Shown piece by piece: positions 111 to 48,112 of a stretch of DNA of 64,000 nt. Within the stretch, counting starts at the first letter, position 1; every line of letters starts with the position of its first letter. Below the pieces are notes generated by a model. It had not been told where the DNA came from. It did not search any database and was given only the letters and a program-made list of their open reading frames with translations. The translations under genes and the position numbers were made by a program. This stretch comes from Candidatus Peribacter sp. UBA6535 (lineage in GTDB: Bacteria > Patescibacteriota > Gracilibacteria > Peribacterales > Peribacteraceae), in contig DJKT01000001.1 of NCBI GenBank assembly GCA_002436205.1, forward strand, positions 4,055-68,054, read 5' to 3'.

Positions 111-791
111 CTATCTATTCGGTCCAATCACTACAACAAACTCGCCCTTCTTTGTAATAGTGTTCGCGGTTTCTTTGAGGTCTGCAACGGTTGTATGGAT
201 TGCTTCTTCATGCATCTTGGTCAGTTCTCTGGCGATGACCATTTTGCGATCTGGTTGATCGGATAGCGCATCAGCAATCTCACATAATGTTTTTTCGATG
301 CGATGAACGGATTCATACAGAACAATTGTACGATCTTCATCTTTGAATGATCCAAATAATGTTTGTCGTCCTTTTTTGAGAGGAGGGAATCCAATATAGA
401 GGAACTGATTGATGGGGAGACCGGATACGCTCAAAGCTGCCAGGAATGCAGAAGGACCAGGAATAACTTCAATTCGTATTTCGTATTTCGTATTTCGTAT
501 TTTGCTTACGACCTTATATCCAGGATCTGAGATCCCAGGAGTACCCGCATCCGAGACCAAAACCAGATGTTCTCCTGCTTCGAGTCGTTCGATGATCCGA
601 TCGATCTTTTTCTCATCACTGTATCCGTGACAAGAGATCAGTTCCTTTTTTTCTATCTCCAAAGCTTTGAGGAGGCTGCCGGTTACGCGTGTATCTTCAC
701 AGACGATAGCATCACAGGCTTTCAGTGTTTCGATACTACGCAATGTGATGTCTCCGAGGTTGCCGATAGGAGTGGAAACGATGCTTAACAC
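111..791 (-). CDS. rsmI: 16S rRNA (cytidine1402-2'-O)-methyltransferase RsmI
   Basis: 226-aa ORF with [29 protein letters not shown] and IPGPSA motifs typical of RsmI (tetrapyrrole-methylase fold). Confidence 0.9.
474..501. repeat. (TCGTATT)x4 heptanucleotide tandem repeat inside rsmI
   Basis: Four perfect 7-nt units, translated on the minus strand as [10 protein letters not shown]. Confidence 0.9.
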
Positions 792-878
792 GCAGAGATC
801 CTATCAAAATATTGCGGTTTTGCCCCTTTCTTCCTGAGGAATTTTCGGTATGATCTTAGAGATCCGCGAGGGTTTTCT

Positions 879-3602
879 ATGGCGAAAAAAGACGACAACG
901 ACGGCGTTCAAGATGAACTTCCTTTTGAGGAAGAGGGTAATGATGAAGGTGCAGAGGTATCAGAGGAGGTAGAGGAGAATGCGAATGATTCTGGAATTAC
1001 CAAGCCACCGCCACTAGCGGAAGGTGGTGAGACTATTGCCAATGTAGGTCGTTTGGCTCCTCGTCCGATTGTTACGGAGATGGAGGAGAGTTACCTCGAC
1101 TATGCCATGAGTGTGATCGTCACCCGTGCTCTTCCTGATGCACGCGACGGACTAAAGCCTGTTCATCGTCGTATTTTGTACGTGATGCATGAGCTGGGAC
1201 TGCGAAGCTCTGCAAAGTTCCGTAAGTCTGCCGCAGTGGTGGGAGATGTTATGGGTAAGTATCACCCACATGGAGACAGCGCTATCTATGACGCACTTGC
1301 TCGTATGGCACAGGATTTTTCGATGCGTCATATGCTCGTTAATGGTCAGGGTAACTTTGGTTCCATCGATGGAGACAATCCTGCTGCCATGCGATATACC
1401 GAGGCGAAGATGCAAAAAATTACGGAGGAGATGTTGCAGGATATCGAAAAAAATACGGTTCTATTTCGTCCAAACTACGATGGATCGAAAAAAGAACCTT
1501 CGGTGTTGCCGACGAAAGTTCCGAACTTACTGCTTAATGGAACAGTCGGTATTGCTGTTGGAATGGCGACAAACATTCCGCCACATAACCTTGGCGAACT
1601 TATTGATGCTATCAATCATCTTATCGCAAACCCAGATGCGACAGTCGAAGACCTATTAGAATTTATCCAGGGTCCGGATTTTCCAACGGGAGGTATTGTG
1701 TATGACAAAGAAGTATTGAAGCAGGCATATCTTACCGGTCGAGGGTCTGTTGTTGTGCGCGGTAAAGCAGAGATTGAGGAAGGAAAGAATGGGCGCTGGC
1801 ACATCCGTATTAATGAGCTTCCGTATCAGGTCAATAAATCCAATATGATCGAAAAGATGGCACGTCTTGTTACAGACAAGATCATTGCCGGTATTTCGGA
1901 TATTCGTGATGAGTCAGATAGAGAAGGTATTCGCATCATGATTGAACTCAAAAAAGACAGCTATCCGCAGAAAGTGCTTAACCAGCTCTTCAAGCACACA
2001 GAATTACAGAGTAGCTTTGGTTATAACTGTATCGCTCTCGCTGATGGCTTGCAGCCGCGACTCCTCAACTTGCAGGAGATGTTGCAGATTTTCATCAATC
2101 ATCGTCGTGAAGTTATTACGCGTCGCGTAACCTACGATCGTGACAGAGCAAAAGAGCGAGCGCACATCTTGGAAGGACTGAAAATTGCTCTTGATGATAT
2201 CGACAAGGTCATCGAAACCATCAAGAAGAGTGCAGATAAGGACATAGCGAAGGAAAACCTTATAAAGAAATTTAAGCTCTCTGAGTTGCAGGCAGATGCT
2301 ATTTTGCAGATGCGTCTACAGACACTTTCGGGTCTTGAGCGTCAGAAAGTAGAAGACGAACTCGCAGAGAAGCTCAAGTTTATTGCTGAATGTGATGCAA
2401 TACTCAAAGACAAGAAGAAGATTGATGTTATCGTCGTCGAAGAGATCGCTGCTATTAAAGAACGTTTCGCAGAGGAGAGACGAACGACAATAGTCAAACA
2501 TGCCGTTGGACAGTTCTCTGCAAAAGACACAATCCCGAATTCACCAATGATTGTGGCTCTTACAACTGGCGGGTACGTTAAGCGTCTGTCTCCAATGCAG
2601 TTTAGATCTCAGCAACGTGGTGGTAAGGGGGTTAAGGGAATGACTACTAAAGATGAAGATGAGATTCAGACACTGCTCCACGTTATGAACCATGATGACC
2701 TGCTCTTCTTTACGAATACTGGTCGTGTCTTTAAGCTTCCGGCTTACGAACTTCCGCAAGGAAGCCGTATTGCGAAGGGGCAGGCGATTGTGAACTTATT
2801 GCAGTTGCAACCGGATGAAGTGATCACTGCGATTCTCAAATCAGACCTCGAAGATAAGACGCACCTCTTTATGGTGACAGAGAAGGGAACAGTAAAACGT
2901 ACCGAGCTTGCACAGTTTGATAATATTCGACGCTCCGGTCTTATCGCACAGAAAACTATTCCTGGAGACCGTCTCAAATGGGTGCTTGCTACAAGTGGTA
3001 CAGATGAAATTCTGATTGTGACAAAGAAAGGAAAAGCTATTCGTTTCCCAGAGGGTGATGTACGAGCGATGGGAAGAGCTGCTGCTGGAGTGCGTGGTAT
3101 CAAACTTGGAGCAGGAGATATTGTTGTGGAGGCTGGTGAAATTTCTGACTCTAAAACATCAATGCTTCTTGTGGTGATGGAAAATGGTCTCGGAAAGATG
3201 ACATCTGTAGAAGAATATCGTTTCCAAGGACGAGGAGGTAGTGGGGTAAAAGCTGCGCAGTTGACTGCAAAAACTGGAGAGATTGTCGGAGGATGTATTT
3301 TGCAAGAAGGTGAAGACGGAGATTTGATTTGTCTTTCCAAGCAAGGTCAGGCTATTCGTATGAAACTTTCGGCCATTCCTTCTCGAGGTCGAGCAACACA
3401 GGGAGTTATTGTTATGCGTCTTAAATCAAAAGATAAAGTCGCAACAATGAGTGTGGTAATGGAAGATAAAGAAGGGGAAGAAGCAGTAGCAGAAGCTGCA
3501 GGCGAAACACAGGAGGAGGAGCTAGAGGCAATCTTGAAAGAAGAGCGTCGTGTAAAGCGCGCAGCAACTGCAGGAAAGAAAAAGGCAGCTAAGGAAGAGT
3601 AG
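879..3602 (+). CDS. gyrA: DNA gyrase subunit A
   Basis: 907-aa ORF with [27 protein letters not shown] and AAMRYTE active-site region, plus C-terminal beta-pinwheel repeats. It has acidic N-terminal and Lys/Glu-rich C-terminal extensions. Confidence 0.97.
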
Positions 3603-3662
3603 TGTAAGTTCTTGTGCATATTTCTTGCATCCAAGCTCAAATTCCCTAAACTCAGCTCGCTT

Positions 3663-4635: not shown

Positions 4636-7314
4636 GTGAAAGAAACACTCCTCTATATTCGCGCACCAAAAGAAAATGAAGAACGCGGTCCCTTGTATGC
4701 GGAGCCAGCTATTGCTGCTATGCATTCTCTAAAAGGAAAAGATGTACCGGTTTCTTTGGAGATGGGTATGGGGCGTGACGGAAAGATCGGATTCTTTGTG
4801 AGGGCTGCTAGAGGAGCGGTACGTTTAACGGAGTCTCAGCTCTATGCACAATATCCGGAGATCGACATTGAGTATCTCACCGAAGATCCGTTTGATCTGC
4901 AGGAAGGAGAACAGGTAGTCAGTGTAGACTTGGTTCTTACAGATCCGGAAGTGTTCCCTATCAAACGTCATCCGCAGTTTGATGACATGCTTACTCGTGT
5001 AAATGTTGACCCTATTGCCGGTATTACTTCGACACTTGCACACTACAGTGTACCGGGGATGCGCGGCCACGTGGGCATTATTATGAAGCCACTTACCGGG
5101 AGTTTCCGCAGGAGATCTCTGCGGTTTTTACCACTGCTTTCTAGGGGGCTTGCTTCTATTTCTGTACGACATGCGAAGTTCTTTACGCAAATGCAACTAG
5201 CACGAGGATGGCGTCGCCTCGTATACTTTCCCGTTGCATTTTTCTTAGGAGGATTCCGTGCGTGGCCCGGGGTAGCGAAGTTTGCAGGCAAAAGTTTGGC
5301 TGCTATCGAAACAGAGTCGTATGATCCTGATTTGCAAGAAGAACAGCAGGCATCTATGCGGTCTCATGATAGAGAAGATCCAATATCTGCTGCTGCAGAT
5401 AAGGTCAATCGACTGATGTTTACGTGCAATATTCGCATCAGTGTTATTGCTCCTGCGGGGCAGCTGGAAGAAGCAAAAGACAAACTACAGGAGATTGCCG
5501 GAAGTTTCCGGCAGTTTGCATTACCACAGTGCAATGCCTTTGTCGTTGGGAAGGCTAAGATCTCTTCGTTGGTTTCTCATAGCATGCAGACGAAGCCGTA
5601 TATTCTTTCTGTGGAAGAAATTGCAACGATGTGGCATATGCCAACCATTCTTGTACAGACACCAAACATTGACTGGGTTGTTAGCAAGAAGCTGGAACCA
5701 CCCAATAATCTTCCTCTGGCAGATAAAGAGAAGGATCTTACCGTGCTTGGAGAAGCGGTATTTCGTGGTCAGCGTCATACGTTTGGTATTCGACCGGATG
5801 ACCGCCGTCGTCATATCTATACCATTGGAAAAACAGGTATGGGTAAATCTACATTGCTCGAGAATATGGTGTATTCCGATATTCATTCTGGTAAAGGGAT
5901 TGCAGTTATCGATCCTCATGGAGATTTGATTGATGCTATCTTGAAGTTTATCCCCAAAGAGAGGAGCAATGATGTTATTCTCTTCGATCCATCTGATACG
6001 GAGTATCCATTGTCGTTTAATGTTTTAGATTGTGCAGATAAAGATCAGCGAGTCCTTGTGGCTTCGGGTTTGATGAGTGTGTTTACGAAGCTGTGGCCTG
6101 ATGCATTCTCTGGAAGAATGGAACACATCCTGCGCAACACATTACTCGCACTTCTCGAAGCAGAAGGACAGTCGATGCTTGGCATCATGCGTATCTTTGC
6201 AGACGACGCGTACCGTGAAAAGATTGTCGAAAAGGTATCGGACCCAATGGTCAAAAGCTTCTGGGTGGATGAGTACGCGGGATGGTCTGATAAATACAGA
6301 ACAGAAGCGGTTGCCGCTATCCAAAACAAGATTGGTCAGTTGCTTTCCACTCCATTGATTCGCAATATTGTTGGGCAAGTTAAAAGCCGCCTTGATGTGC
6401 GTCATGCAATGGACACAGGCAAAATCATTCTCGTGAATCTTAGTAAAGGAAAGTTGGGAGAAGATACATCAGCATTTATTGGATCGATGCTTGTTACGAA
6501 GTTTCAGATCGATGCAATGAGTCGTGCGGATATCCCCGAGGAAGAGAGGCGTGACTTTTACCTCTACGTGGATGAGTTCCAGAACTTCGCAACAGAAAGC
6601 TTTGCGACTATTCTCTCTGAGGCGAGAAAGTACCGACTCAATCTTACAATGGCGAACCAGTATGTGGCACAGCTGCTTATTGGGGATAACAATACCAAGC
6701 TGCGGGATGCGGTGTTTGGAAACGTCGGAACACTCATTAGCTTCCAAGTAGGTTCTGACGATGCAGAAGTTTTGAGTTTGCAGTTTGAAGAGACGGTAAT
6801 GCCCAAAGATATTCTTAGTCTCCCGAAGTATCACGCGTATTCTCGATTGATGGTGGATGGAATGACAAACTTACCGTTTTCTGTCAGCACACTTCCACCT
6901 CCGAAATTCGAGCAAGATGCAGGACGCACAGAAGTTATTCGCAAGCTTTCCCGTGAGCGATATGCTGAGAAGCGTGAGATTGTAGAAGACAAGGTGAATC
7001 GCTGGGCGGCGCAGGCAGCTGAAGGAAAGACGGAGGCAAAGCAAGTAGCAAAAGCAAAAGAGAAAGAAGAAGAGGAGATCAAAAAAGCACGCAAGAAGGG
7101 GATGAAGCTGGAGGAGTATCGTGCGTGGCGTGACCGGGAGATGTGGCTCAATGATTTTAATATGCTTCGCAAACAGCAGCTCTTGGAGAACAATCTCTCA
7201 GATAAGCAGAAGAGTGATATGGCAGAACTCGAAAAGAAACTTGCAGATACTGGTGGTGTACCGGAAATCAGCAAGACACTTCAAGCAGAAATTGATAAGA
7301 AGAAGAAAAATTAG
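4636..7314 (+). CDS. VirD4/TraD-like P-loop ATPase (type IV coupling-protein family) with an unassigned 380-aa N-terminal region
   Basis: GTG start abuts the hrcA stop (TAAGTG). Walker A is GKTGMGKST, followed by VIDPHGD; Walker B/TraG-D_C-like is FYLYVDEFQNF...RKYRLNLTMANQ. It has a Lys/Glu-rich coiled-coil tail and no N-terminal TM pair. Confidence 0.7.
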   Translation: MKETLLYIRAPKENEERGPLYAEPAIAAMHSLKGKDVPVSLEMGMGRDGKIGFFVRAARGAVRLTESQLYAQYPEIDIEYLTEDPFDLQEGEQVVSVDLVLTDPEVFPIKRHPQFDDMLTRVNVDPIAGITSTLAHYSVPGMRGHVGIIMKPLTGSFRRRSLRFLPLLSRGLASISVRHAKFFTQMQLARGWRRLVYFPVAFFLGGFRAWPGVAKFAGKSLAAIETESYDPDLQEEQQASMRSHDREDPISAAADKVNRLMFTCNIRISVIAPAGQLEEAKDKLQEIAGSFRQFALPQCNAFVVGKAKISSLVSHSMQTKPYILSVEEIATMWHMPTILVQTPNIDWVVSKKLEPPNNLPLADKEKDLTVLGEAVFRGQRHTFGIRPDDRRRHIYTIGKTGMGKSTLLENMVYSDIHSGKGIAVIDPHGDLIDAILKFIPKERSNDVILFDPSDTEYPLSFNVLDCADKDQRVLVASGLMSVFTKLWPDAFSGRMEHILRNTLLALLEAEGQSMLGIMRIFADDAYREKIVEKVSDPMVKSFWVDEYAGWSDKYRTEAVAAIQNKIGQLLSTPLIRNIVGQVKSRLDVRHAMDTGKIILVNLSKGKLGEDTSAFIGSMLVTKFQIDAMSRADIPEEERRDFYLYVDEFQNFATESFATILSEARKYRLNLTMANQYVAQLLIGDNNTKLRDAVFGNVGTLISFQVGSDDAEVLSLQFEETVMPKDILSLPKYHAYSRLMVDGMTNLPFSVSTLPPPKFEQDAGRTEVIRKLSRERYAEKREIVEDKVNRWAAQAAEGKTEAKQVAKAKEKEEEEIKKARKKGMKLEEYRAWRDREMWLNDFNMLRKQQLLENNLSDKQKSDMAELEKKLADTGGVPEISKTLQAEIDKKKKN

Positions 7315-8309: not shown

Positions 8310-8858
8310 TCAGTATCGAATGTTGGTGGAGCTGCAGTCACCGCCTGTACAAATGTAGCGGGTGTGCTCGTACTCTTCGTAATAGTTACTGTTATTATTG
8401 TGGCGTCTTCGACCACCATGGTAATAGTCATTATCACTTTGGTAGCGGTATTTTCGGTAGGTGTCGTCTTCTTCATCGAAGTACCATTGCCACGTTCCAT
8501 CTTTGTATCGATCACCTTTGTTGTAGTATCGGAAGAAATCGTCTTTATCATCGAGGTAGTCGTTGTCGTCGTCTTCATTTTCAAATAGATATGCACGGTA
8601 GTAATTGTTTCGATTGTTGTAACGATTATCCCAAGTATGTCGATTCGTTGACTGTGCATTGTACATACTCCTAAATGGATAGGTTTGTGGACTAAAGAAG
8701 TATGGGTTTTGCACTTGTCTGTTTAAACAAGAACCCGCGATGTCTCTGTAGTGGCAGGTGTAGCCTGGATAGTAACTGGCTGCTTCTATAGTGGTAGGCA
8801 GAAGTGCAGCGCAGATGATTGCACTGAAAGCGAGGATTGGGAGAAGTTTCTTCTTCAC
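8310..8858 (-). CDS. Secreted low-complexity Tyr/Asn/Asp/Arg-rich protein
   Basis: ORF 8310-8987 trimmed to GTG 8858 (VKKKLLPILAFSAIICAALLPTTIEA, signal-peptide-like). The mature part is rich in Y, N, D and R. Confidence 0.5.
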   Translation of the reverse strand: MKKKLLPILAFSAIICAALLPTTIEAASYYPGYTCHYRDIAGSCLNRQVQNPYFFSPQTYPFRSMYNAQSTNRHTWDNRYNNRNNYYRAYLFENEDDDNDYLDDKDDFFRYYNKGDRYKDGTWQWYFDEEDDTYRKYRYQSDNDYYHGGRRRHNNNSNYYEEYEHTRYICTGGDCSSTNIRY

Positions 8859-12923: not shown

Positions 12924-12925
12924 AT

Positions 12926-30243: not shown

Positions 30244-30251
30244 ATGCCTTC

Positions 30252-37440: not shown

Positions 37441-37479
37441 GGGTTTATTATACCACTAAAATACGCTATAATAGTTCTA

Positions 37480-38535
37480 ATGGAGCAAATAACACAGATT
37501 CTAGCATATCAGATTGGTGGAAACACCGTAAGTCAACTCGCAATAGCGGTTGGTATCTTCTTGGCGATTTTTGTCGCTATGAAAATAACCAGAAAGCATG
37601 TTGTTGGTCGAATGATAAAACTTTCGAAGAAAACAAGCTCTAAGGTCGATGATACGGTTTCGGCTTTTCTTGGAGGTATTAAAACGCCGATTTATCTACT
37701 TGTTGCCCTGTTTGTCGCTTTGCAAGGTATAGAAGTACCGGAATCACTCAATCTGATTATTGATATTGTCATTTTGGTGGTAGTTGTTTCTCAGGTTATT
37801 AAGCTCCTTGAGGAGGTGTTTGCCATGATGCTTGGCGTTCAGTTTAAGCGTACTAATCCAAACTCCGAGCTCCCTGGTATTTTCCGTGTTGGTATTCGGC
37901 TTCTACTGTGGTCCATAGGAATTTTGCTGATTCTCTCTAATGCAGGAGTAAATATCTCCTCGCTTATTGCAGGTCTTGGTATTGGAGGTTTAGCGATTTC
38001 TCTTGCGCTCCAAAACATCCTCTCAGATCTCTTTGCTTCATTCTCTATCGCAGTCGATAAGCCTTTCGAGATTGGAGACTTTATCATCATTGGAGAGCAC
38101 AAAGGAACCGTAAAACATATTGGCATGAAGACAACTCGCATTACAGCGTTGGAAGGAGAGGAGATTGTCATTTCGAATGCGGAGCTTACTTCTGCTCGTG
38201 TCCAAAACTACAAGAAGATGGAAAAGCGCCGTATCGTCTTTACGTTTGGTTGTACGTACGACACAAAGGCAGATCAAATGGAGAAGATTGCCAAAGATGT
38301 TTCCAAGATTATTGATGATCACAAACTTGCGGAAGTTGATCGTGTGCACTTTAAGCAGTTTGGAGACAGTGATCTTCAGTTTGAGGCGGTCTATTTTATG
38401 CTCACAAGTGACTACGTTGAATATATGGATACGCAGCAGGATATTAATATCCGCCTCATGAAGTACTTTGAGGAGAATGGTCTCGAGATGGCATACCCAA
38501 CACAGACGCTTTTCTTGAAGAAAGAAGAGCAGTAG
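37480..38535 (+). CDS. Small-conductance mechanosensitive channel (MscS family)
   Basis: Three or four N-terminal TMs, then GLGIGGLAISLALQNILSDLFASF...FEIGDFI..G..GTV..IGMKTTRI. Confidence 0.88.
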   Translation: MEQITQILAYQIGGNTVSQLAIAVGIFLAIFVAMKITRKHVVGRMIKLSKKTSSKVDDTVSAFLGGIKTPIYLLVALFVALQGIEVPESLNLIIDIVILVVVVSQVIKLLEEVFAMMLGVQFKRTNPNSELPGIFRVGIRLLLWSIGILLILSNAGVNISSLIAGLGIGGLAISLALQNILSDLFASFSIAVDKPFEIGDFIIIGEHKGTVKHIGMKTTRITALEGEEIVISNAELTSARVQNYKKMEKRRIVFTFGCTYDTKADQMEKIAKDVSKIIDDHKLAEVDRVHFKQFGDSDLQFEAVYFMLTSDYVEYMDTQQDINIRLMKYFEENGLEMAYPTQTLFLKKEEQ

Positions 38536-38615
38536 AAGAAATCGAGATGCAATTACTCGAGTGGAAACAAGTACGCTAGTACGTGTATACTCTCCTCAAC
38601 CTTTTCTCCCTTATT

Positions 38616-39632
38616 ATGCTCGGACTTCAATGTACAGAATCAGCTATTAGAGCTGCTGCTGCAAAAAAAAGTGGACAGTTACTCTCCGTACAAGCAAGAG
38701 CAGAGCAAAAATTAGGAAAAGATATTATCGAAGGCGACATTGTGCAGGACACAGAAAAAGCGATCGAAGCTCTCAAAAAACTGAAGTCTTCGTTAAAGAT
38801 GCGGTCAAGAAAAGTCACACTCTGCTTGTCACCGCGTAGTGTCTACACACACTTGCTTCGTGTACCGAAGGTTCGGTCTGGTCGTTTGACATCTGCCGTA
38901 CAAAAAGAGTTAGAGGCGGTACTTCCAGAGGTTATAGAAGATATGCAGATTCACTTCACGCCAATACGTAGAGATAAAAAAGGAACACGCATTGCAGTAA
39001 CTGCAGTAAAAAAAGATCTTCTTGCTTCCTATAAAGTGTTACTAAAGAAGTCGAAGCTTTCTCTTGGAAACGTTACAACTTCAGCGCTTGCACTCGGAGA
39101 TATGCTAAAGCATGTCGACACATTTCTCTTGGTAAATGCCGAAGATCCAGAGCCAAGTATTGTGGTGTTTTACGGAGGCTTTCCTGTAGATGAGCAGCTT
39201 CTTTCTTCTACGGCTGCACAGACAGTGCTTGCACAAGTACGCAGTCTGCTTGATGAATATAAAGCTGATGACATGCCTGTTCAACATATTGCCGTCCATG
39301 CTTCAAAAGAGTTCTTTGCAAAGATCGAGCAAGGGTTTCTTCCAAAGAAAGCAAAAGAGAAGAAAGAGGAGATAGAAGATGCTGTGACAGTAGAGCACGT
39401 ACTTCCAGGTTTAAAAAAGGCAGACCTCGTCTGGGGTGGATTGATAGCATCCTCACTAGGAAAAGGTTTGGATGTACGCAAAAGTGCATCTTCGTTTTCT
39501 TTTCTCCAATGTGTTCTCTTAGGAGCATTTGTTACTGCTGCTGGCTATTTTGTATGGGTAATTGGTAACGCACAGATCATGGGTCTTTGGGCAGAAATAC
39601 AGTCATTTTTCCCTATCGTTTTTAAGCTCTAA
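38616..39632 (+). CDS. PilM-like (actin-fold) pilus-assembly protein with a C-terminal TM segment
   Basis: The N-terminal layout resembles PilM (LGLQ..SAIRAA...G.I.D...A...LK......KVTLCLSPRSVY..LLRVPKV...L..AV..E). A hydrophobic helix lies near the C-terminus. Weak assignment. Confidence 0.45.
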   Translation: MLGLQCTESAIRAAAAKKSGQLLSVQARAEQKLGKDIIEGDIVQDTEKAIEALKKLKSSLKMRSRKVTLCLSPRSVYTHLLRVPKVRSGRLTSAVQKELEAVLPEVIEDMQIHFTPIRRDKKGTRIAVTAVKKDLLASYKVLLKKSKLSLGNVTTSALALGDMLKHVDTFLLVNAEDPEPSIVVFYGGFPVDEQLLSSTAAQTVLAQVRSLLDEYKADDMPVQHIAVHASKEFFAKIEQGFLPKKAKEKKEEIEDAVTVEHVLPGLKKADLVWGGLIASSLGKGLDVRKSASSFSFLQCVLLGAFVTAAGYFVWVIGNAQIMGLWAEIQSFFPIVFKL

Positions 39633-39826
39633 TAAACAAAACCGCCAACCAATAGAATCAGAAGACGGTGTTTGTTTTTGGCCGTCGAAGATTTGAAGCA
39701 AGCCTCATTTCCAAAACGACACATATATTATAGCAAATTTTACTTAACATTTCAATGGCCATTTTAAGGCAAAATTTAGCAAATATGAGCTGTTTTATGG
39801 CATCGAATTCGCTATGCTGTCTATCC

Positions 39827-40699
39827 ATGGCCTCTCGAAACACTCTTGGCGAGAACTTAGCCGCTATGCTAAAAGGCGGCGTTATTATGGATGTGGTGAA
39901 TGCAGACCAAGCTCAATTAGCCGAAAAAGCAGGGGCGTGCGCGGTTATGGCTCTGGAGCGTGTGCCTGCGGATATTCGTAGAGATGGTGGCGTTGCACGC
40001 ATGAGCGACCCGTTACTTATTAAAGAGATTGCAGCTGCAGTGAGTATTCCTGTTATGGCAAAAGTCCGTATCGGGCACACCACAGAGGCAAAAATCCTCG
40101 AAGCACTTAATGTAGATTTTATCGATGAGAGTGAGGTGCTGACACCTGCAGATCCATTTGATCATATTACAAAGACAGATTTTACAATTCCATTTGTTTG
40201 TGGAGCGACTAACCTTGGAGAAGGGTTGCGTAGAATAAATGAGGGGGCTGCAATGATTCGTACAAAAGGGGAGGCGGGTACAGGAAATGTTGTGGAAGCT
40301 GTGCGTCATCTAAAAATGATTAACAAAGAGATCGCAGGCCTCAAAGAGAAATCCAAAACGGATATGCGTCTGTTTGCGCAGACAGAGCGCATTCCACTAG
40401 AGCTTCTCGAACGTGTGCGCGAGATGCAGAGACTTCCTGTTGTTACGTTTGTTGCCGGCGGTATTGCTACTCCTGCAGATGCTGCTCTTATGATGTCACT
40501 TGGAGCAGAGGGTGTGTTTGTTGGTTCGGGTATCTTTAAGTCGGAAGATCCTGCAAAAACTGCAGTGGCTATAGTGCATGCTACGGTCAATTGGAATGAT
40601 GCGAAGATTGTTACAGAGGCCTCGGAAGGACTCGGTGAAGCTATGGCAGGAAAAGAGATTGAAGAGTTGGAGGTGGTGATGGCTAAGAGAGGACATTAG
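39827..40699 (+). CDS. pdxS: Pyridoxal 5'-phosphate synthase lyase subunit PdxS
   Basis: ORF trimmed to ATG 39827. Motifs [45 protein letters not shown] and [11 protein letters not shown]. Confidence 0.95.
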
Positions 40700-40703
40700 G
40701 AGT

Positions 40704-40789
40704 GGATAATGGATAGTGGATAAAGAATGACCAATGACCAATGACCAATGACCAACAACCGACAACTGGCAACCAACAACCAATAACCA
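40704..40789. repeat. 12 consecutive heptamers plus a short interruption: GGATAAT-GGATAGT-GGATAAA ... (ATGACCA)x4-ACAACCG-ACAACTG-GCAACCA-ACAACCA-ATAACCA
   Basis: Spans the pdxS-pdxT spacer and the first 16 codons of pdxT. Four ATGs are spaced 7 nt apart, and only the one at 40741 is in frame. Confidence 0.9.
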
Positions 40790-41325
40790 TTGGAGTACTT
40801 GCTCTTCAGGGAGACTTTGCAGAGCACAAAGCAATGCTTGCAGCATTGAAAATCCGAAGCATCGAAATCCGAAGTACGAAGGATCTTGAAGGGTGTGATG
40901 CTCTCATCATTCCCGGAGGAGAGAGTACGGTGATGATGAAACTCCTTAAAGAGACCGGTCTTGATCAATCGATTATTGATAGGGTGCGATCTGGTATGTC
41001 GATCTTTGGAACGTGTGCTGGAGCGATAGTGCTTTCTGATTCGCATCTAAAGCTGATGGATATATCAGTCGAAAGGAATGCATACGGGTCTCAACTTCAG
41101 AGTTTTTCCGATCAGATAGACATTAAAAACATAGGATCAATCGAAGCTACGTTTATTCGTGCTCCGATAATCACTCATGTAGGTCAAAATGTATCGATTC
41201 TTGCTACCCATAACGATCATCCAGTTTTGGTGCAGCAGGGCAATATCGTTGCTTCAACATTTCATCCTGAGGTGCGGTCTGAAATGGCGATTCATCAGTT
41301 GTTTGTAGGATGTCTTCACTACTGA
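40741..41325 (+). CDS. pdxT: Pyridoxal 5'-phosphate synthase glutaminase subunit PdxT
   Basis: IGVLALQGDF, GTCAGAIVL catalytic-Cys region, and FHPE at the C-terminus. The N-terminal 15 aa (MTNDQQPTTGNQQPI) are encoded by the repeat array. Confidence 0.92.
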   Translation: MTNDQQPTTGNQQPITIGVLALQGDFAEHKAMLAALKIRSIEIRSTKDLEGCDALIIPGGESTVMMKLLKETGLDQSIIDRVRSGMSIFGTCAGAIVLSDSHLKLMDISVERNAYGSQLQSFSDQIDIKNIGSIEATFIRAPIITHVGQNVSILATHNDHPVLVQQGNIVASTFHPEVRSEMAIHQLFVGCLHY

Positions 41326-41340
41326 CTTCATTTCTTATTT

Positions 41341-41364
41341 GTTACTTTTCAGATGAAAAGTAAC
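41341..41364 (+). terminator. Perfect 10-bp hairpin downstream of pdxT (terminator-like)
   Basis: GTTACTTTTC-AGAT-GAAAAGTAAC. The T-rich run lies 5' rather than 3' of the stem, so its function is uncertain. Confidence 0.4.
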
Positions 41365-41614
41365 CAAAAATCTTTGCCACTGATGTGAACGAAGAAATAG
41401 TAAGAGAACAGAGTGTTCGCTCCTCGGCAAAGTCTCCTACGGAGCTTCGCACTTCGTCGCTACAAGGAATATAAATGCTGTATGATCTTCGTTCACACGA
41501 CAGTGGCAGATGGCCTTGCTTCTCTTTAAACAGAGCTCCCTTCTCCTCCGCAGAGGAGAAGGGTCGGGGATGAGGTTGGCTAGCAGTGCAAACCTGTTGT
41601 AATATTTTACAACA

Positions 41615-42700: not shown

Positions 42701-42780
42701 CCTTTGGGTTCACGTAAGCCTAGCGTGAATAGTAAATATGGAGCACAGTGTATGTCCTCTTTAACATTTCACTCTCTTTT

Positions 42781-45700
42781 ATGAATGCTCTTCGACGTTT
42801 CCTTGTAACATTCCTTACAGGAGTATTGTTATGTAATCCTGCATACGCTTTTGCACAGGATGTACGTGCAGGCATCGACTTCTTTGGGTCGGGGCCGAGT
42901 GAATTTCATGTTGATAGTTTCTTTGATGTTTTTACAGAGCTCGCAGTTCCAGATGTCTTGTGTGATCCTTGTGATGCGATAGAGGCAGAGATTGCGCAAA
43001 AGGAAGCTGAGATAGAGGGGCTAAAAGAAGACCTGGGAACACTGGAGGGTTGGCTGGATGATATTGCTGGTGATATAGAAGATGCTCAGAGCGATTTAGA
43101 AGATGCACAGGCGGATTTGGATGAATTTACCGATCCTCAGAATTACGTAGAGAGCGAAGGGCGTCGGTATGATTCCAGTGATAATGCTGCGATGAATCGC
43201 AGAAATGCAAATCTTTGGGATGCATATAAGGCAGGGGATTTGACGGCACATGAATATAGCGACGAAGTGGGTAAGCCGTATGATGATCCAGACGTTGCCA
43301 AAGAGCTTGAGAAGCTGAAGAAAGAAATTAAGAAAGAAATGGAAGAAGCGGTGAAGGATGCCAAGAGTCAAGTGGAGGATCTCAAAGAGAAGCAGAAAGA
43401 GTGGAACGAACTTGGTGCAGAAATGACTGCAGAGCTTGAAGAGTGTCTCACAAAACTCGAGGAACTTATTAAGGCGCTGGAGGAATGCAAAAAGCAGTGC
43501 AAAAAGGGTAAAGTAAAAATAGAAGATCTCGGCGTTATTCCTGAGGAGCGAGGATTATTCGATAGTTTCTTTGATATCTTTATCGATCTCTTTTCTGGCC
43601 CACCTCTCGTTTTACCGGGCGGTACGGATACCATTGTCGAGAGACTCGATCCCGATGCTCAACCTCCCGGATCAGATACCGTTCCAATAGAACTGGTTGA
43701 GCTGCAGCTACAGTCTTTTGAGCCTGTTGTTGTAGGTCTTAATGATCCTATAAAAATACTTCCTCCTCCAAAGTGTCAGTTGTGTGATCCGCTGGCAAAA
43801 GATATTGCAGCCAAAGAGGCAGCACTTAAGAAGCTCAAGCAGGAACTTGCCAATGCACAGGCAGCATTACTGGTATTGGATGGATTAATTGGCATTGGAG
43901 AAGGCATGCTGGAGGATGCGAAGGAAAATCTGGAAGATCTGCAAAATCCTTCAGATTACGTTGAGAGTGAAGGCCGTCGATACGATAGTTCTGATCATGC
44001 AGCCATGAAGATACGCAATCAGCGTCTGTGGGGAGAGTACAAAGCAGGAAAACTATCTGCACAAGGCCTCTCTGATGAATGGGCAAAGCCATTTGATGAT
44101 CCGGATGTTGCGAAAGAACTTGAGGAGATCAAAAAAGATCTTGCAGAAGAACTTGAGGATGCAATCGATTCTATAGAAGATTCCATTGACACTCTTAAAA
44201 AACAGAAAGCAGATCTTGAAAAGGATATTGAAGACATGAAAAAGGAGATTGCAGAGTGCGAGAAGAAATTAGCTGAGATGCGTCAGAAATATGAGGAATG
44301 TCAGAAGAAGTGCGTAGCAAAAGTTGAGGATGCATTCGATGACTTCTTCGATGATTTGCCTCCTCTGTTTGTAGATGGGTTTGAAAGTGGAGACACTACA
44401 AGGTGGTCACAGGCCATTGGAGATACAGATGATAAAGATGAAGAAGACGAAGAAGACAACGATGATGAGGGATTCCTCTGTGGAACACTTGGACTATTTT
44501 GTCCGTCGGATCCTATTCCGACACTCGGTGCTTTTGCAGATTGTGTTGTAGAACGTTCTTCCGATCCATTCTGTACGAATAACTTTGATCAAAACGGAGA
44601 TGGACAGACCAATACAGTAGATATTGAACTTGTAGCACTCTCTTTGGTAAGTACAGAACCTATTACCGTGGGCGGTGAGCTTTGGGATGTCCAAGTCGAT
44701 CTTTCGGGTATGGATGGTAATACCGGTAGTATGAGCATAGAAGATCTTCGCCTGGGAAGTGAGTGTTTCGGTGGTGGACCGTGTGATGGCCTCGGCGTCA
44801 CATTGCCACCAGATCTATCTACAGTACCCCTTGATCTTTCTGGTAATGATTTTCAGCCACAACTATCAGGAGGAAATGATGTATTATTAGGAGATCCACT
44901 TTCTGATGATTTCATTGGTGTTGGCGGTGTGAATAATGTTGATTTTGCAGATAATCCTATTCCTGCTGACTTCTTTGGTCCAGGCAGTGCTCCATTTGAT
45001 GGAACAGTTGATTTGCTTCCTTTTGGTGCGCCAGGTCCTGGGTCGGATCTGCCGCCACTTGTTCTTCCAGATCCGGTGCAACCACCACCTGAGCAAGTGC
45101 CACAGGCTGTCAAAGACCTGATTGCTAAGATCATTCGTGATAATCCTTTGGGTCCCTGTGAGCAGTTGATTATCAATGTTCGACGTATCCGCATTGGAAA
45201 CAGAGTTTCGTATACAGTGACTGCCACAAGAACACGAGATGAGTCTGCCTGTCCACCTGCAGTTTGCCCTCCGCAGACACATTTCCAGTCTATTGGGACT
45301 GGTTGTGATGCTTGCCAAAATGGCAATGCCGGATGCACCGTAATTGAAACCCTGCCGGATGGAACGAATTGTATGTTGTGTGCTCCACCATCCGATGATC
45401 AGGATGATATAGACCTAGATGATGGTGATGGATATGAAAATGATGGTGGCGGAGATGACTTGTGTGAGGACATTAGCTGTGATGATGGAGACGAATGTAC
45501 GGAAGACGAATGTGATCCGGAGACTGGCGAATGTCATAACACCCCCATTGATGGATGTGGTGATCCGGTCTTCGATTGCAGTAATAATGATTTGCTACCA
45601 TTTGATAGTAAGACCGAGTGCCAGGCCGGTAGTCCGCTTTGCCCTTCCAGCACTGCTGAATGCCAAAGTCACAGTACACCAAACGGCACGTGTTGGGGTT

Positions 45701-46638
45701 GTGTACCAAAAGAAGTAGATCAGCTTTCTCCTTGTCGCGAAGATGATCGTTGGCAGTTGGAATCCGAAGCGGAGTCCGCTTGTAAGACACAGAATAAAGT
45801 TCATTACAAAGTAACGGATTACTGTTGGGGTTGTAAAGATGCCAAGTGTGATTCGCCACTCGTTGATCACAGTGGAGCAGCTGCTCTTGAAGCAGATGGT
45901 AGCTATGAGTGTAGTCCGGTACGGGTTGGCAACTTAACGTGTTACGACTGTAAAGAGGTGCAGTCAGATCCACCGCCTCCACAGTGTGACGATGGACTTG
46001 TTTCAGATTGTAGCCTGTGTCCAAGTAATACTGAGTGTGGAGGTCGAAACAGTAATGGCTGCCATATCTGTAACCCTGTAGATACAGGGCCCACTTGCCC
46101 AAGTGGTACAACAGCTAGTGAGTCAGATTGTGAGTCACAGTGTCCGAGTGATGGCACCTGTATAGGAGAAGATGGTTGCTACAGTTGCATAGTCGTGAAC
46201 TGCCCAAGTGGTACCACAAAGAACGAGTGTCCAAGTAGCTGCTCAAATGGTTGTGACGTGGTGGGAGAGCAGCACGGTATCAAGTGTTATCAGTGTAAAC
46301 AGGATTGTGAGTCGGTTTGTGCAGAGAATGACTACGGCCCAGAGAGCACAGATCACTCTAATGCGATCTTAAGTGAGCTGAATGGTTACAACTGTGTATC
46401 TGGTGCAAATATCAGCATTCAGACAGCAACGATTGGCGACTGTCACTGTATTGGAGATTACAGTCTGCAGGTTGATACAACGCCACCTGTTTGTGCGGGT
46501 ACGCCTTGTGGAGATGTGGAGTGTGGTGGATCTGCCAGTTGCCCTGGTGGACCGAATGAGACCATTACCGTGAACTGTAACTGGGGTGGATGGGAGAAAT
46601 TACAGAAGCATCAGTTCCGTCCTGTCGTCGGAAATTAA
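42781..46638 (+). CDS. Giant secreted protein (1285 aa): duplicated coiled-coil module plus a Cys-rich C-terminal half
   Basis: ORF trimmed to ATG 42781 (signal peptide ...NPAYAFA). An internal duplication of about 200 aa (YVESEGRRYDSSD..DDPDVAKELE twice). Motifs of the type CDDGDECTEDECDPETGEC and dozens of Cys in the C-terminal part. Confidence 0.8.
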   Translation: MNALRRFLVTFLTGVLLCNPAYAFAQDVRAGIDFFGSGPSEFHVDSFFDVFTELAVPDVLCDPCDAIEAEIAQKEAEIEGLKEDLGTLEGWLDDIAGDIEDAQSDLEDAQADLDEFTDPQNYVESEGRRYDSSDNAAMNRRNANLWDAYKAGDLTAHEYSDEVGKPYDDPDVAKELEKLKKEIKKEMEEAVKDAKSQVEDLKEKQKEWNELGAEMTAELEECLTKLEELIKALEECKKQCKKGKVKIEDLGVIPEERGLFDSFFDIFIDLFSGPPLVLPGGTDTIVERLDPDAQPPGSDTVPIELVELQLQSFEPVVVGLNDPIKILPPPKCQLCDPLAKDIAAKEAALKKLKQELANAQAALLVLDGLIGIGEGMLEDAKENLEDLQNPSDYVESEGRRYDSSDHAAMKIRNQRLWGEYKAGKLSAQGLSDEWAKPFDDPDVAKELEEIKKDLAEELEDAIDSIEDSIDTLKKQKADLEKDIEDMKKEIAECEKKLAEMRQKYEECQKKCVAKVEDAFDDFFDDLPPLFVDGFESGDTTRWSQAIGDTDDKDEEDEEDNDDEGFLCGTLGLFCPSDPIPTLGAFADCVVERSSDPFCTNNFDQNGDGQTNTVDIELVALSLVSTEPITVGGELWDVQVDLSGMDGNTGSMSIEDLRLGSECFGGGPCDGLGVTLPPDLSTVPLDLSGNDFQPQLSGGNDVLLGDPLSDDFIGVGGVNNVDFADNPIPADFFGPGSAPFDGTVDLLPFGAPGPGSDLPPLVLPDPVQPPPEQVPQAVKDLIAKIIRDNPLGPCEQLIINVRRIRIGNRVSYTVTATRTRDESACPPAVCPPQTHFQSIGTGCDACQNGNAGCTVIETLPDGTNCMLCAPPSDDQDDIDLDDGDGYENDGGGDDLCEDISCDDGDECTEDECDPETGECHNTPIDGCGDPVFDCSNNDLLPFDSKTECQAGSPLCPSSTAECQSHSTPNGTCWGCVPKEVDQLSPCREDDRWQLESEAESACKTQNKVHYKVTDYCWGCKDAKCDSPLVDHSGAAALEADGSYECSPVRVGNLTCYDCKEVQSDPPPPQCDDGLVSDCSLCPSNTECGGRNSNGCHICNPVDTGPTCPSGTTASESDCESQCPSDGTCIGEDGCYSCIVVNCPSGTTKNECPSSCSNGCDVVGEQHGIKCYQCKQDCESVCAENDYGPESTDHSNAILSELNGYNCVSGANISIQTATIGDCHCIGDYSLQVDTTPPVCAGTPCGDVECGGSASCPGGPNETITVNCNWGGWEKLQKHQFRPVVGN

Positions 46639-46655
46639 GATTAGGGCATAGCGCG

Positions 46656-46684
46656 AAATGGGTCACAGTATTGTGATCCATTTC
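46656..46684 (+). terminator. Rho-independent terminator-like hairpin
   Basis: AAATGGGTCACA-GTAT-TGTGATCCATTT (12-bp stem with one G:T), then a T-rich tail. Confidence 0.6.
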
Positions 46685-46906
46685 TTGCTATTATGAATTC
46701 ATGCGAAAATTTATCCTTGCTCTCCTAAGCAACCAGAGCAGATAACGCTTTTAGATGGAACACCTGCAGTACTTGAGGATCTGATTGATGGTCGGGCTGC
46801 AATCATTAACTTTTGGGCTACAACATGCCCTTTTTGCAAAGACGAACTTCCACATTTTGAAGAGATCGCTAATGCACATCCCGAGATTGCAGTTATCGGA
46901 ATCAAC

Positions 46907-48112
46907 TTGCAGGAAAGTCCAAAGGCAGCGCTCAAGTACTGGACTGATGGGGGATATAGCTTTCCGACGTTGCTTGATCCAAGCTCTGAACTCAAAGCAC
47001 ACTTCGATGTCTTTACGCAGCCAACGACATTTTATTTGGATGCGCAGGGAAATGAAGTAAGTAAGAAAAACGGTCCTATGAGTGGGGAAGAGATAGAGAG
47101 GAGGATGGGGGAGCTACTTGAGGGGGATATCGAAGAGAGCGAAGATGGCGAGGAGTATGAAGAGAGGCAAATTCGAAATTCGAAATTCGAAATTCGAATT
47201 TCTCCTGTACCTTCATCATTATCAAAATGGTATCAAGGTAAAGTTAATCATTTAATCCCACTACAGGAGATACTATCCGGTGGTCCTCCTAAAGATGGAA
47301 TTCCATCAATAGATGATCCTCAGTTCCTTCTTTCGCGTGAGGTAGATTTCTTGGAAGATGATGATGTTGGGATATTGGTAGAGCTTGATGGTCACGTAAA
47401 GTTTTATCCGTATGCAATTTTAAACTGGCATGAGATAGTGAACGATCGAATGGCTGGAGAAGATATCACAGTTTCATACTGTCCACTCTGTGCTACAGGC
47501 GTTGTGTACAGCAGCCTTATTTCTGAGGGTAGCAGTGAATTTGGCGTATCGGGATTTCTCTATCAGTCGAATTTACTAATGTATGATCGTGCTACAGATT
47601 CACTCTGGAATCAGGTGACAGGACAGGCGGTTGTAGGACCACTCACTGGAGAGTATTTGCATCGCATCAAGAGTGATATTGTTCGATACAGTGCAGCCAA
47701 GGAAGCCTCTTTGGATCTTCTCGTCCTTTCTACAGATACAGGGCATAGCAGAGACTACAGTCGTACGCCGTATGCAGGGTATGAGACAGAAGAGCGAACG
47801 ATCTTTCCCACAAATGCTGCAGGGGATAATCGTCTCCATCCAAAAGCTATTGTTTATGGTGTGACGATTGACGATAAAGCATTGGCAATCTCAGAAGACT
47901 TCATCCTCGATCGAGGAGTATTCCAGGGGTATCTAGGAGAAGGAGTGCAAAAGATCCCGTTGCAGATAGAGTACGATTCACGTACAGAGCGCCTCAAGAT
48001 CACGCGCTTTTACAAAGACGAGCCCGGTCGTAGGGAGGAGCTGGTTCTCATTCCTGCATTCTGGTTCTCTTGGCTTTCGATGTATCCGGAGACAAAGCTG
48101 ATGGCAAAATAG
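46907..48112 (+). CDS. TlpA-like thioredoxin domain fused to a DUF3179 domain (5' end unresolved; homology continues upstream to 46697)
   Basis: DUF3179 pattern DGIPSIDDPQF...YPYAILNWHEIVND...VSYCPLCATG. The same frame upstream of the TTG at 46907 encodes AIINFWATTCPFCKDELPHF (CxxC) but has no ATG/GTG/TTG. Confidence 0.7.
   Translation: MQESPKAALKYWTDGGYSFPTLLDPSSELKAHFDVFTQPTTFYLDAQGNEVSKKNGPMSGEEIERRMGELLEGDIEESEDGEEYEERQIRNSKFEIRISPVPSSLSKWYQGKVNHLIPLQEILSGGPPKDGIPSIDDPQFLLSREVDFLEDDDVGILVELDGHVKFYPYAILNWHEIVNDRMAGEDITVSYCPLCATGVVYSSLISEGSSEFGVSGFLYQSNLLMYDRATDSLWNQVTGQAVVGPLTGEYLHRIKSDIVRYSAAKEASLDLLVLSTDTGHSRDYSRTPYAGYETEERTIFPTNAAGDNRLHPKAIVYGVTIDDKALAISEDFILDRGVFQGYLGEGVQKIPLQIEYDSRTERLKITRFYKDEPGRREELVLIPAFWFSWLSMYPETKLMAK
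47170..47197. repeat. (AATTCGA)x4 heptanucleotide tandem repeat in the Trx-DUF3179 linker
   Basis: Four perfect units, translated as IRNSKFEIRI. Confidence 0.9.

Follow-up and report, generated by a model that had tools for sequence, protein, structure and literature searches.

The DNA analysed here (the window) is a stretch of 64,000 nt from Candidatus Peribacter sp. UBA6535, and the feature under study is a set of short tandem arrays of heptanucleotide units dispersed over it. The window is an ordinary chromosome segment with gyrA, hrcA, dnaX, the gene for serine hydroxymethyltransferase (SHMT), dcd, a mevalonate-pathway operon, pdxS/pdxT, rpsA, a clpC-like gene, and one tRNA gene. Tandem Repeats Finder, from which the array positions are taken, detects 14 period-7 arrays with match levels of 78–100% and one period-14 array composed of two alternating heptamers; perfect runs were counted separately. 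Arrays fill the spacers between dnaX and the FTHF cyclo-ligase gene, between dnaX and dsbA, between pdxS and pdxT, and upstream of a YgjP-like gene. Some arrays abut start codons (e.g., 12926 and 40726), and others follow stop codons or are situated in promoters or inside genes. A preliminary description of the same sequence had assigned the repeats to a non-cyanobacterial genome; in agreement with this, all named relatives of DnaX and RsmI belong to Candidatus Peribacteria, Peribacteraceae, or Peregrinibacteria. The best genome match of the window DnaX is a Candidatus Peribacteria metagenome-assembled genome (MAG) with 51% identity, and in a large protein database Ca. Peribacter riflensis shows 58% and 74% identity to the window DnaX and RsmI, respectively. 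Contigs matching the window identically originate from Tara Oceans and other marine metagenomes. A metagenome scan with HMG-CoA reductase provided relatives of at most 60% identity only, and closer ones were obtained via the protein database. The syntenic relatives used to trace the arrays have DnaX proteins 81, 78, 75, 74, and 68–69% identical to that of the window.

The period of 7 given in the preliminary description is borne out, and it is specifically enriched. Among perfect arrays of at least three copies, eight in the window have period 7, none has any other period from 5 to 15, and 50 dinucleotide-preserving shuffles gave 0.0. The array positions also agree within a few bases with those previously listed. 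With a threshold of at least 2.5 perfect copies, nine arrays are found in the 64-kb window against seven in 79 loci of other bacteria (1.28 Mb), which is an approximately 26-fold difference in density. No period-7 arrays were found in the other control loci of the Candidate Phyla Radiation (CPR), namely Uhrbacteria, Dojkabacteria, and another Patescibacteria MAG. In 328 kb of non-redundant Peribacteria-clade sequence, where the relatives of the window are loci numbered L001, L088, L111, and so on, 69 period-7 arrays were counted, compared with 18 of period 6 and 16 of period 8. They are distributed unevenly: L001 (7 in 21 kb, in addition to period-9 arrays), L088 (10 in 21 kb), L098 (9), and L091 (8 in 8.6 kb) are rich in arrays and L111 also carries them, whereas L102, L099, and L089 are poor. 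Median values for the 69 arrays are 3.9 copies and 27 nt, and copy numbers range from 2.1 to 6.7. The copy distribution peaks at 4.0–4.9 and then ends, and only five of the arrays exceed 34 nt; the mode and the ceiling are the same for intergenic arrays and those deep in coding sequences (CDSs). Nearly half of them (34/69) lie mostly outside the maximal open reading frame (ORF) map, that is, in at most 8% of the DNA, corresponding to an at least six-fold enrichment at gene borders. A pervasive hidden 7-nt periodicity was considered and rejected: the excess of lag-7 autocorrelation is tiny, most of the approximately 40 spacers have no array, and the arrays are discrete.

The arrays were compared among 11 independent assemblies that are 99.95–100% identical to the window (four over 3009–24490 and seven over 28307–41367), which come from different samples, projects, and pipelines and were compared as consensus sequences only. 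No unit-number variant was found at any of 10 arrays, and even the assemblies with 6–7 point changes per 14–21 kb have no indel at an array. The identity of the arrays among pipelines speaks against an assembly artefact and the shuffles against chance, and the occurrence of arrays in related species against both, so that either origin can be regarded as refuted. Phase-variable contingency loci, in which slippage in unit number switches genes on and off, would suit a period that is not a multiple of 3 and arrays placed at 5′ ends, in promoters, and inside genes; heptameric simple sequence repeats (SSRs) are reported to drive phase variation in Haemophilus. However, unit number is invariant despite the point differences, and copy number is kept between species. 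The hosts are the housekeeping genes rsmI, dnaX, pdxT, and, in relatives, the HMG-CoA reductase gene, plus a gene for an OB-fold/guanylate kinase protein, and not surface or virulence genes, and (ATGACCA)n gives an in-frame ATG in any register, which buffers frame changes rather than switching a gene. Given the absence of indels and the housekeeping nature of the hosts, classical phase variation is excluded, at least as far as consensus assemblies show. The contingency explanation is thus largely refuted and very improbable.

Several independent contigs stop at or near arrays: L105 ends at window position 29253, at the start of the (AAGTGGA) array described below, L108 at 29194, and L104 at 40605, in the vicinity of the pdxS-pdxT arrays. 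Dispersed identical arrays may break short-read assemblies of this genome.

The clearest view of array evolution is given by rsmI. The array at 473–502 (minus strand), (AAATACG)4.3 with a 100% match, is located in the ORF (111–791) of this 16S rRNA 2′-O-methyltransferase and encodes a length-variable loop of the TP_methylase domain. The sequence is AGC-A(AAATACG)4-AATTGAA in the window and AGT-A(AAATCCG)4-AATCGAG in L111, an 85% relative. Both arrays are perfect, have 4.3 copies, and occupy equal positions; each of the four units differs at one base. This substitution replaces Thr with Pro and Tyr with Ser, while the gene overall is 74.6% identical. A substitution present in every unit, against the conservatism of the protein, indicates that homogenization acts on the DNA. 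The loop in other relatives is IRNPKSEIRI or IRNTEYEIPI, which are slightly decayed versions of the array, or is 7, 5, or 3 residues shorter; one relative, P0124, is shorter at the array by exactly 7 residues (21 nt, i.e., three units).

A similar unit change is found in the divergent dnaX/dsbA promoter spacer, where the window has (CGGATAG)3.9 at 14509–14535, adjoining the TATACT −10-like box of dnaX, and (GTCACAA)2.7 at 14549–14567. Written for comparison as (GTGACTT)2.7 and (TATCCRC)3.9, these correspond to (GTGATTT)4.3 and (TTTCCAC)4.1 in L098 and to (CACTTTC)3.9 in L103, so that upstream of dnaX the window unit TATCCRC stands against TTTCCAC in L098 and L103. The comparison of orthologous loci proposed in the preliminary description reveals arrays that are kept, changed, gained, or lost. 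The arrays are stable in populations, long-lived at orthologous sites, and kept perfect by concerted evolution, with a copy number of approximately 4.

In-gene arrays show how such sequences are accommodated by proteins. Four clear cases are present in the window, including that of RsmI. In a 503-residue membrane protein (19905–21416), the array at 20786–20818 (plus strand) consists of (GGCAGTT)4 (4.0 copies, 20786–20813) followed by AGCTG. It encodes RAVGSWQLAVSW between transmembrane segments, which pairs without a gap with LATRNRSLVLRF of the orthologues; the orthologue in L103 is exactly 7 codons short there. The DNA of the orthologues opposite (GGCAGTT)4 already has scattered GTTGG/TTGGT motifs, and origins of in-gene arrays by in-frame three-unit steps and by conversion without a length change are both possible. 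The array at 30965–30998 (minus strand), which encodes QLIANCQLPTAI, consists of (GGCAGTT)3.7 (30965–30990) followed by GGCAATTAGCTG on the plus strand and lies in the ChsH2/DUF35 OB-fold domain of an OB-guanylate kinase fusion protein. The arrays at 20786–20818 and 30965–30998 are near-identical 33-mers with a common non-repeat tail, TAGCTG. The fourth array, (AAATTCG)4.9 at 47169–47202 (plus strand), encodes QIRNSKFEIRIS in the linker that joins a redoxin domain to DUF3179. It has the frame of the RsmI array and belongs to the same family, with one base per unit different, and the AAATACG and AAATTCG arrays have a common copy number and tail (AATT).

The HMG-CoA reductase genes of the relatives contain three arrays in L088 and one in L086. 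One of these arrays, (ATTCCGG)3.9, encodes FRIPDSGFR opposite FKVSDKESR of the window, and another, (ACTACTC)3.9, has TTPYSLLTT where the window has TTPEEMMKV, in each case with no gap; the remaining two arrays add 3 residues. The L086 array occupies the loop of the first L088 array with a different unit. Simple insertion into genes is rejected, since the alignments give changes of only 0 to +3 residues, and the in-gene arrays appear to overwrite variable loops more than they insert. In-frame three-unit slippage was also rejected as the cause of the four-copy mode, since intergenic arrays have an equal mode and ceiling; it is retained solely to account for the indels of 7 codons within genes. 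The arrays are features of the DNA and not repeats of the protein. With regard to placement, the concentration at borders noted previously is borne out, but the statement that in-gene arrays all reside in linkers is not, because the array at 473 is in the TP_methylase domain and that at 30965 is in the ChsH2/DUF35 OB-fold.

The arrays at gene borders can provide coding signals. The pdxS-pdxT junction (40703–40789, plus strand) consists of (TGGATAR)3 at 40703–40723, (AATGACC)4.3 at 40726–40755, and a degenerate (ACCAACA)5.6 at 40751–40789. (TGGATAR)3 gives stop codons in all three frames, and the subsequent four AATGACC units give ATG codons in all three, because 7 exceeds a multiple of 3 by one. 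Read from the ATG at 40741, which lies in the frame of pdxT, the protein gains an N terminus encoded by the array, MTNDQQPTTGNQQPIT. An N terminus beginning with MTND, made by (ATGACYA)n, is observed both in pdxT (40741–40789) and in dnaX of L097 (9990–10030), the start codon of which lies inside an (ACTAATG) array. In L095, (CGGAAAA)n at 17374–17408 produces the Lys/Arg-rich C-terminal tail NGKRKTENGK of a DUF8128 ATPase. Annotation in this clade should be treated with caution, since start codons, C-terminal tails, and loops can be derived from arrays.

Array positions are also related to promoters. A Shine-Dalgarno-like motif precedes 6 of 32 genes, while a TATACT/TATAAT-like box is found 7–15 nt before the start in most genes. 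The proximity of the box to the start codon and the scarcity of Shine-Dalgarno motifs suggest leaderless or very short-leader mRNAs in this lineage. The TATACT box of dnaX, 11–15 nt upstream of the ATG, is conserved in eight related genomes. The arrays at dnaX (several genomes) and the repeat at maf adjoin the −10-like box and thus occupy the −35/upstream region. The maf repeat (26926–26954), situated between a stop codon and the −10-like box, had been listed as a heptamer array but has a period of 6, (TAGGGC)4.7. Examples of the box are found at 14491–14510 (dnaX), 26955–26967 (maf), 37441–37479 (divergent nudix/mscS pair), and 48100–48127 (TPR gene), and the bases just before the ATG are often C/T-rich.

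The spacer between dnaX and the FTHF cyclo-ligase gene (12924–13008, minus strand) is composed almost wholly of arrays. The left part (12926–12948) consists of GGGGACT, which is a single unit and not a tandem repeat as had been stated, and (CTGGTAG)2.6, with the period-7 call at 12931–12948. The right part is (AATCCCTAACTACT)2.6 at 12976–13012, which has a period of 14 and takes in the dnaX stop codon. Each half is an imperfect inverse complement of the other, and the spacer is orthologous in L095, L097, and L098, with equal arm families. The consensus stem has 20 pairs in the four genomes, and the fold is weak (z approximately −1.2). Covariation in the stem amounts to one compensatory pair among the four sequences, and it was therefore dropped as support for the hairpin. 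At the same junction, L001 has a different and very stable hairpin (z −8.4).

A conserved, non-repetitive leader of approximately 110–145 nt is observed upstream of the SHMT gene (…GCAAACAAGAC…GAAAGGC…AGCGCCCTGAAGCGTGCTTTGC…) at 12238–12347 (minus strand) of the window, 12207–12333 of L097, 12093–12219 of L100, and 12120–12266 of L102. In L095 and L098, a heptamer hairpin takes its place. The leader has no match in Rfam and could be an unrecognized cis-regulatory RNA.

Unit families recur at unlinked loci, as had been noted in the preliminary description. Allowing for rotation and strand, 62 pairs of identical units occur among the 69 arrays, whereas two null models give 2.8–5.3 (maximum 10). 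GTGGAAA is found in nine arrays of seven genomes and CGGAAAA in five; with L111 included, GTGGAAA is present at no fewer than eight distinct sites. The suggestion that the repeats are actively spreading holds in part: one unit family has been dispersed over evolutionary time, but at the population level the 11 assemblies show no variant, and orthologous positions and copy numbers are kept.

The pair (AAGTGGA)n-loop-(TTTTCCG)n is found at six or more non-orthologous sites in at least six genomes, in one strand orientation throughout. In the window it extends over 29251–29357, with a left arm of (AAGTGGA)4.6 at 29251–29282 (plus strand), a 35-nt loop, and a degenerate right arm of (CCGTTTT)5.7 at 29318–29357 (plus strand). 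This module is located between the stop codon of a 301-residue ORF and the promoter of the YgjP-like gene, both on the minus strand, and its right arm overlaps the last codons of the upstream gene. The other sites are L095 17337–17408, which is orthologous to L100 17927–17999, L098 12158–12229, L111 8658/8834, and two more with degenerate arms. Where a small ORF and the DUF8128 ATPase gene converge, the two stop codons lie directly against each other in the window, L097, L101, and L103, and the junction is empty. In L095 and L100, a 72-nt module is present between the stops, and its right arm forms the 10-residue tail of the ATPase. The modules of L095 and L100 with their immediate flanks are identical at 87 of 88 positions, while the surrounding genes are 76% identical; this excess corresponds, by inference, to a binomial P of approximately 1e-9. 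Homogenization within arrays cannot explain this conservation, since the conserved stretch includes the non-repetitive loop of 19 nt. At least one inverted pair, GTGGAAA/TTTTCCG, is thus under strong sequence constraint.

Doublets of another period were observed in L001, a more distant Peribacteria MAG. Its period-9 units (TGGTAAGTA / ACCTACCCA), found at 5010–5076, 8585–8616, and 12131–12186, form inverse array pairs of the same type at several loci, with approximately 27–32 nt per array. The doublet architecture and the array length of approximately 30 nt are thus not bound to period 7.

RNA folds of the modules on the AAGUGGA...UUUUCCG strand have energies of −42.1, −30.2, and −22.2 kcal/mol (z −4.5, −4.5, and −3.6), and none of 200 shuffles is as stable. 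The opposite strand is weaker by 10–16 kcal/mol; in the window, the plus strand has −42.1 kcal/mol (z −4.5) and the minus strand −26.1 kcal/mol (z −2.3). This difference arises because transitions in the arms give G·U pairs on one strand and A·C mismatches on the other. Compared with an intrinsic terminator, which would have a G+C-rich stem and a subsequent U tract on the sense strand downstream of a gene, the modules give a mixed picture: their stems are long and rich in A-U and G·U pairs, the 3′ arm is U-rich, and a U7 run comes next in L095, though not in L100. In the window the more stable strand runs antisense to the two flanking genes; in L098 it is the sense strand, and in L095 the module falls between convergent genes. 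A known RNA family was sought without success: Rfam matched only one tRNA in the window at the gathering threshold, and the array spacers gave far sub-threshold matches to miRNA-precursor hairpins.

These observations raise the possibility that the modules resemble REPINs (hairpins formed by repetitive extragenic palindromic (REP) sequences) or miniature transposable elements with inverted repeats (MITEs), namely that an inverse doublet is copied as a single-stranded hairpin by a REP-associated tyrosine transposase (RAYT) or an IS200/IS605-type transposase, with the single arrays as remnants. The recurrence of one doublet at many non-orthologous sites, the sharp borders of the filled and empty orthologous junctions, and the near-identical window 33-mers with their common non-repeat tail are in line with such copying. 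So are the independence of orientation from the neighbours and the better hairpin always on one strand, as in elements processed as single strands; REPINs are themselves hairpin doublets (PMC3116915). However, neither the 64-kb window nor the genes called in approximately 15 related loci include a transposase, RAYT, or reverse transcriptase, and no target-site duplication is visible at the filled/empty junction. Furthermore, 64 kb contains just one doublet, dozens of units exist, many as single arrays, and in-gene arrays replace sequence length-neutrally. Mobility also leaves the in situ unit change of orthologous arrays unexplained. We consider mobile elements a rather unlikely source of the arrays.

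Alternatively, as the preliminary description also suggested, the arrays could be binding sites for a protein that reads 7-nt periodic motifs, either an RNA-binding translation regulator (S1-, Csp-, or CsrA-like) or a promoter DNA-binding factor, with approximately four units as the footprint of an oligomer. The narrow, conserved copy number of approximately 4 would fit such a footprint. Many units contain a YGGAWW core (GTGGAAA, ACGGAAA, GCGGATA, ATGGATA, and CCGGATT), the arrays adjoin start codons and −10 boxes, one module is conserved in sequence beyond its structure, and an S1-, Csp-, or CsrA-like binder was proposed for TAACTGA repeats (PMC4679880). Against this, the units are highly diverse (e.g., AAATACG, GGCAGTT, ATGACCA, and GTAGTTA), orthologous arrays change their unit, and arrays stand in either orientation to genes and also within coding sequences that are unrelated. 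Outside arrays, the word GTGGAAA shows hardly any enrichment (44 occurrences, 27 expected; rank approximately 980 of 8189), and a role as an uptake signal or single-word binding motif was rejected for this reason. The number of units, the two orientations, and the near absence of enrichment outside arrays argue against one sequence-specific binder, and the binding-site explanation is quite unlikely.

A third alternative is that the arrays are a functionless by-product of slippage-prone replication or repair, with conservation reflecting homogenization only. Mrazek reportedly proposed that the abundance of SSRs of 5–11 nt reflects their tendency to expand and not a physiological role, and the diversity of units, the presence of arrays in any tolerant place including enzyme loops, and their gain and loss at orthologous spacers agree with this proposal. 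It does not predict that the loop and flanks in L095 and L100 are conserved together with the arms (87/88 against 76%), that even L001 retains a hairpin, of different sequence, at the dnaX-FTHF junction, or that copy number is conserved. A purely neutral origin is accordingly a minor possibility.

Tandem heptamers in cyanobacteria have been known since 1990, and their short tandemly repeated repetitive (STRR) sequences were named in the preliminary description as the closest precedent. Mazel et al. (1990) are said to have described STRR units of CCCCA(A/G)T, TTGGTCA, and CAACAGT. (ATGACCA)n is the reverse complement and rotation of (TTGGTCA)n, as had been pointed out, and the window (ATGACCA)4, the array at 40726, equals STRR2 (TTGGTCA) on the opposite strand. 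The analogy is apt in that several tandem heptamer families are dispersed in the chromosome, mainly between genes. The differences are that the host of the window is no cyanobacterium, that the other STRR units do not occur in tandem, and that the arrays are short. No tandem CCCCAGT, CAACAGT, TAACTGA, or GGGAATC was found in approximately 340 kb of the clade.

Among documented precedents, the GGGAATC repeats of Xanthomonas arguably come closest, ahead of STRR, with their many convergent array pairs and unusual stability. Each Xanthomonas genome has 70–75 convergent pairs of GGGAATC arrays, the pair type is kept between species, and the repeats are unusually stable (Rehm et al. 2015, PMC4692102). 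Like these repeats and Nostoc GGGGAYT, the window arrays are intergenic heptamer arrays at stable loci, with convergent pairs able to form stem-loops; such pairs are present at 29251/29318 and 12926/12976 of the window and in L001, L091, L095, L098, and L111. The Xanthomonas and Nostoc repeats use one G-rich, G-quadruplex-capable unit, whereas the window clade has dozens of units. A G-quadruplex reading was rejected, since no G3+N1-7 ×4 motif is present on either strand of the window. In Xanthomonas array length differs between species, whereas in the window clade copy number is conserved and arrays are prominent in enzyme domains.

Comparison with Beggiatoaceae shows a different balance. There, TAACTGA repeats have 2–6 copies and often immediately precede start codons, in genomes where canonical ribosome-binding sites are few; a number of them are inside ORFs, and they are near housekeeping genes (MacGregor 2015, PMC4679880). 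The copy range of 2.1–6.7 in the window clade is similar; some of its arrays abut starts, and others follow stops or are located in promoters or inside genes. However, the Beggiatoaceae repeats are of a single unit, with related heptamers rarely repeated, whereas the window clade has many units and frequent inverse pairs, and TAACTGA as a word is under-represented in it (13 observed against 32 expected). REPINs are hairpin-forming doublets (Bertels and Rainey 2011, PMC3116915), and the GTGGAAA/TTTTCCG subset resembles REP/REPIN sequences as short extragenic hairpin doublets at gene borders. In contrast to the window clade, in which arrays are mostly single and some are intragenic, REP/REPIN sequences lack a tandem-unit construction and are associated with RAYTs. 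Tens to hundreds of near-identical copies per genome are typical of REP/REPIN sequences; the doublet occurs once in the 64-kb window and one to three times per 10–21-kb locus in some relatives.

Heptamers are summarized in PMC4679880 and PMC4692102, which cite Mrazek (2007), as the commonest class of long SSRs (LSSRs) in many bacteria, with polymerase slippage as the proposed cause. According to the summary in PMC4679880, the genomes richest in LSSRs are large ones, such as those of Burkholderia, cyanobacteria, actinobacteria, and Xanthomonas. The window arrays are like LSSRs of 5–11 nt in being head-to-tail tandem, over-frequent, mostly intergenic, and dominated by period 7. They differ in that the host belongs to a CPR clade with complete genomes of approximately 1.25 Mb, that they are capped at approximately five units, and that they lack length variability, which is a usual but not strictly defining property of LSSRs. 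The arrays thus agree with the descriptive definition of heptanucleotide LSSRs but not with the unit and host of STRR, TAACTGA, or G-quadruplex repeats. No report tying Peregrinibacteria or Peribacteria to heptamer repeats was found in our literature search.

Taken together, the arrays are probably a lineage-specific family of heptanucleotide SSRs that is homogenized by 7-nt out-of-register misalignment, with some inverted pairs kept as stem-loops. They are of one kind with the STRR, Xanthomonas GGGAATC, and Beggiatoaceae TAACTGA repeats, and what is new is the host, the small genomes of the CPR. In this mechanism, the nascent strand would transiently mispair one or more 7-nt units out of register during replication or repair, and copying of a neighbouring unit would make and homogenize short arrays. 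Inside genes, only frame-preserving outcomes, i.e., three-unit steps or length-neutral conversion, would survive, which is proposed to be why arrays overwrite tolerant loops and linkers. Selection would remove arrays elsewhere and concentrate them in short spacers at gene borders. The inverted pairs may serve as intercistronic or 3′-end structural elements, such as terminators, transcript stabilizers, or insulators, and the arrays adjoining the −10 box of near-leaderless genes may fill the −35/upstream promoter region.

Several observations fit this misalignment mechanism poorly. The ceiling of approximately 4–5 copies (28–34 nt) applies to intergenic arrays as well as to those deep in coding sequences, and frame preservation is no explanation for it. 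If arrays changed by simple one-unit slippage, their lengths would be distributed monotonically and copy numbers would differ from species to species, and neither is observed. Nor is local slippage an explanation for the presence of equal units and unit pairs at many non-orthologous sites of different genomes, or for the non-repeat tail common to the two window 33-mers. The choice of period 7 has no account. The role of the inverted pairs is affected as well, since a favoured strand that is antisense in the window and sense in L098 is inconsistent with a role at the mRNA level, and the single compensatory pair in the dnaX-FTHF stem does not help. A more far-reaching possibility, which we regard as tentative and rather unlikely, is that Peribacteria have a dedicated or unusual homogenizing process that writes and maintains patches of approximately 30 nt of 7-nt (sometimes 8- or 9-nt) units length-neutrally, rewriting loops of essential enzymes. 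Its products would include a new class of dispersed and strongly conserved hairpins made of two inverse arrays (GTGGAAA/TTTTCCG), which would either spread in a manner of their own or act in cis as regulators throughout the clade.

Further features of the window should be mentioned. Two period-7 calls were absent from the preliminary list and have approximately two copies each, near chance. One of them, (CTGCCAC)2.1 at 34942–34956 in the CDS of mevalonate diphosphate decarboxylase, is marginal and related to the GGCAGTT family; the other is (TGCTTTT)2.3 at 57646–57661 in the clpC-like CDS, at about the level of chance. Upstream of the 47169 array, the redoxin domain (46690–46910) is complete and in frame (NFWATTCPFC), with no ATG, GTG, or TTG before 46907, and a signal-peptide-like MRKFILALLS is encoded just upstream in another frame. 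This arrangement suggests that there is a frameshift or sequencing error or that the start is non-canonical, and the predicted product would be a redoxin-DUF3179 fusion. The mevalonate-pathway operon (30252–36932) comprises genes for a prenyltransferase, a GHMP kinase, diphosphomevalonate decarboxylase, HMG-CoA reductase, an HMG-CoA synthase-like protein, and a thiolase. The DUF35/ChsH2 OB-fold protein that partners the thiolase is joined to a guanylate kinase domain, and the fusion is called as a single gene product of 305 residues in independent assemblies. A 1296-residue secreted-looking protein (42748–46638) has two near-duplicate coiled-coil modules, a long Cys-rich C-terminal region, a match to the Dictyostelium repeat, and 21-nt and 12-nt repeats in its coding sequence.

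The origin and function of bacterial heptamer repeats are an old question, and the arrays described here extend the phenomenon to the CPR. The Peribacteria clade provides a compact comparative system for this question, with small genomes, conserved gene order, and relatives graded from 100% to 50% identity. Since such graded relatives allow the behaviour of single arrays to be read, the choice between by-product and function, and the question of why the unit has seven nucleotides, can be tested on marine and groundwater metagenomes and metatranscriptomes that already exist.

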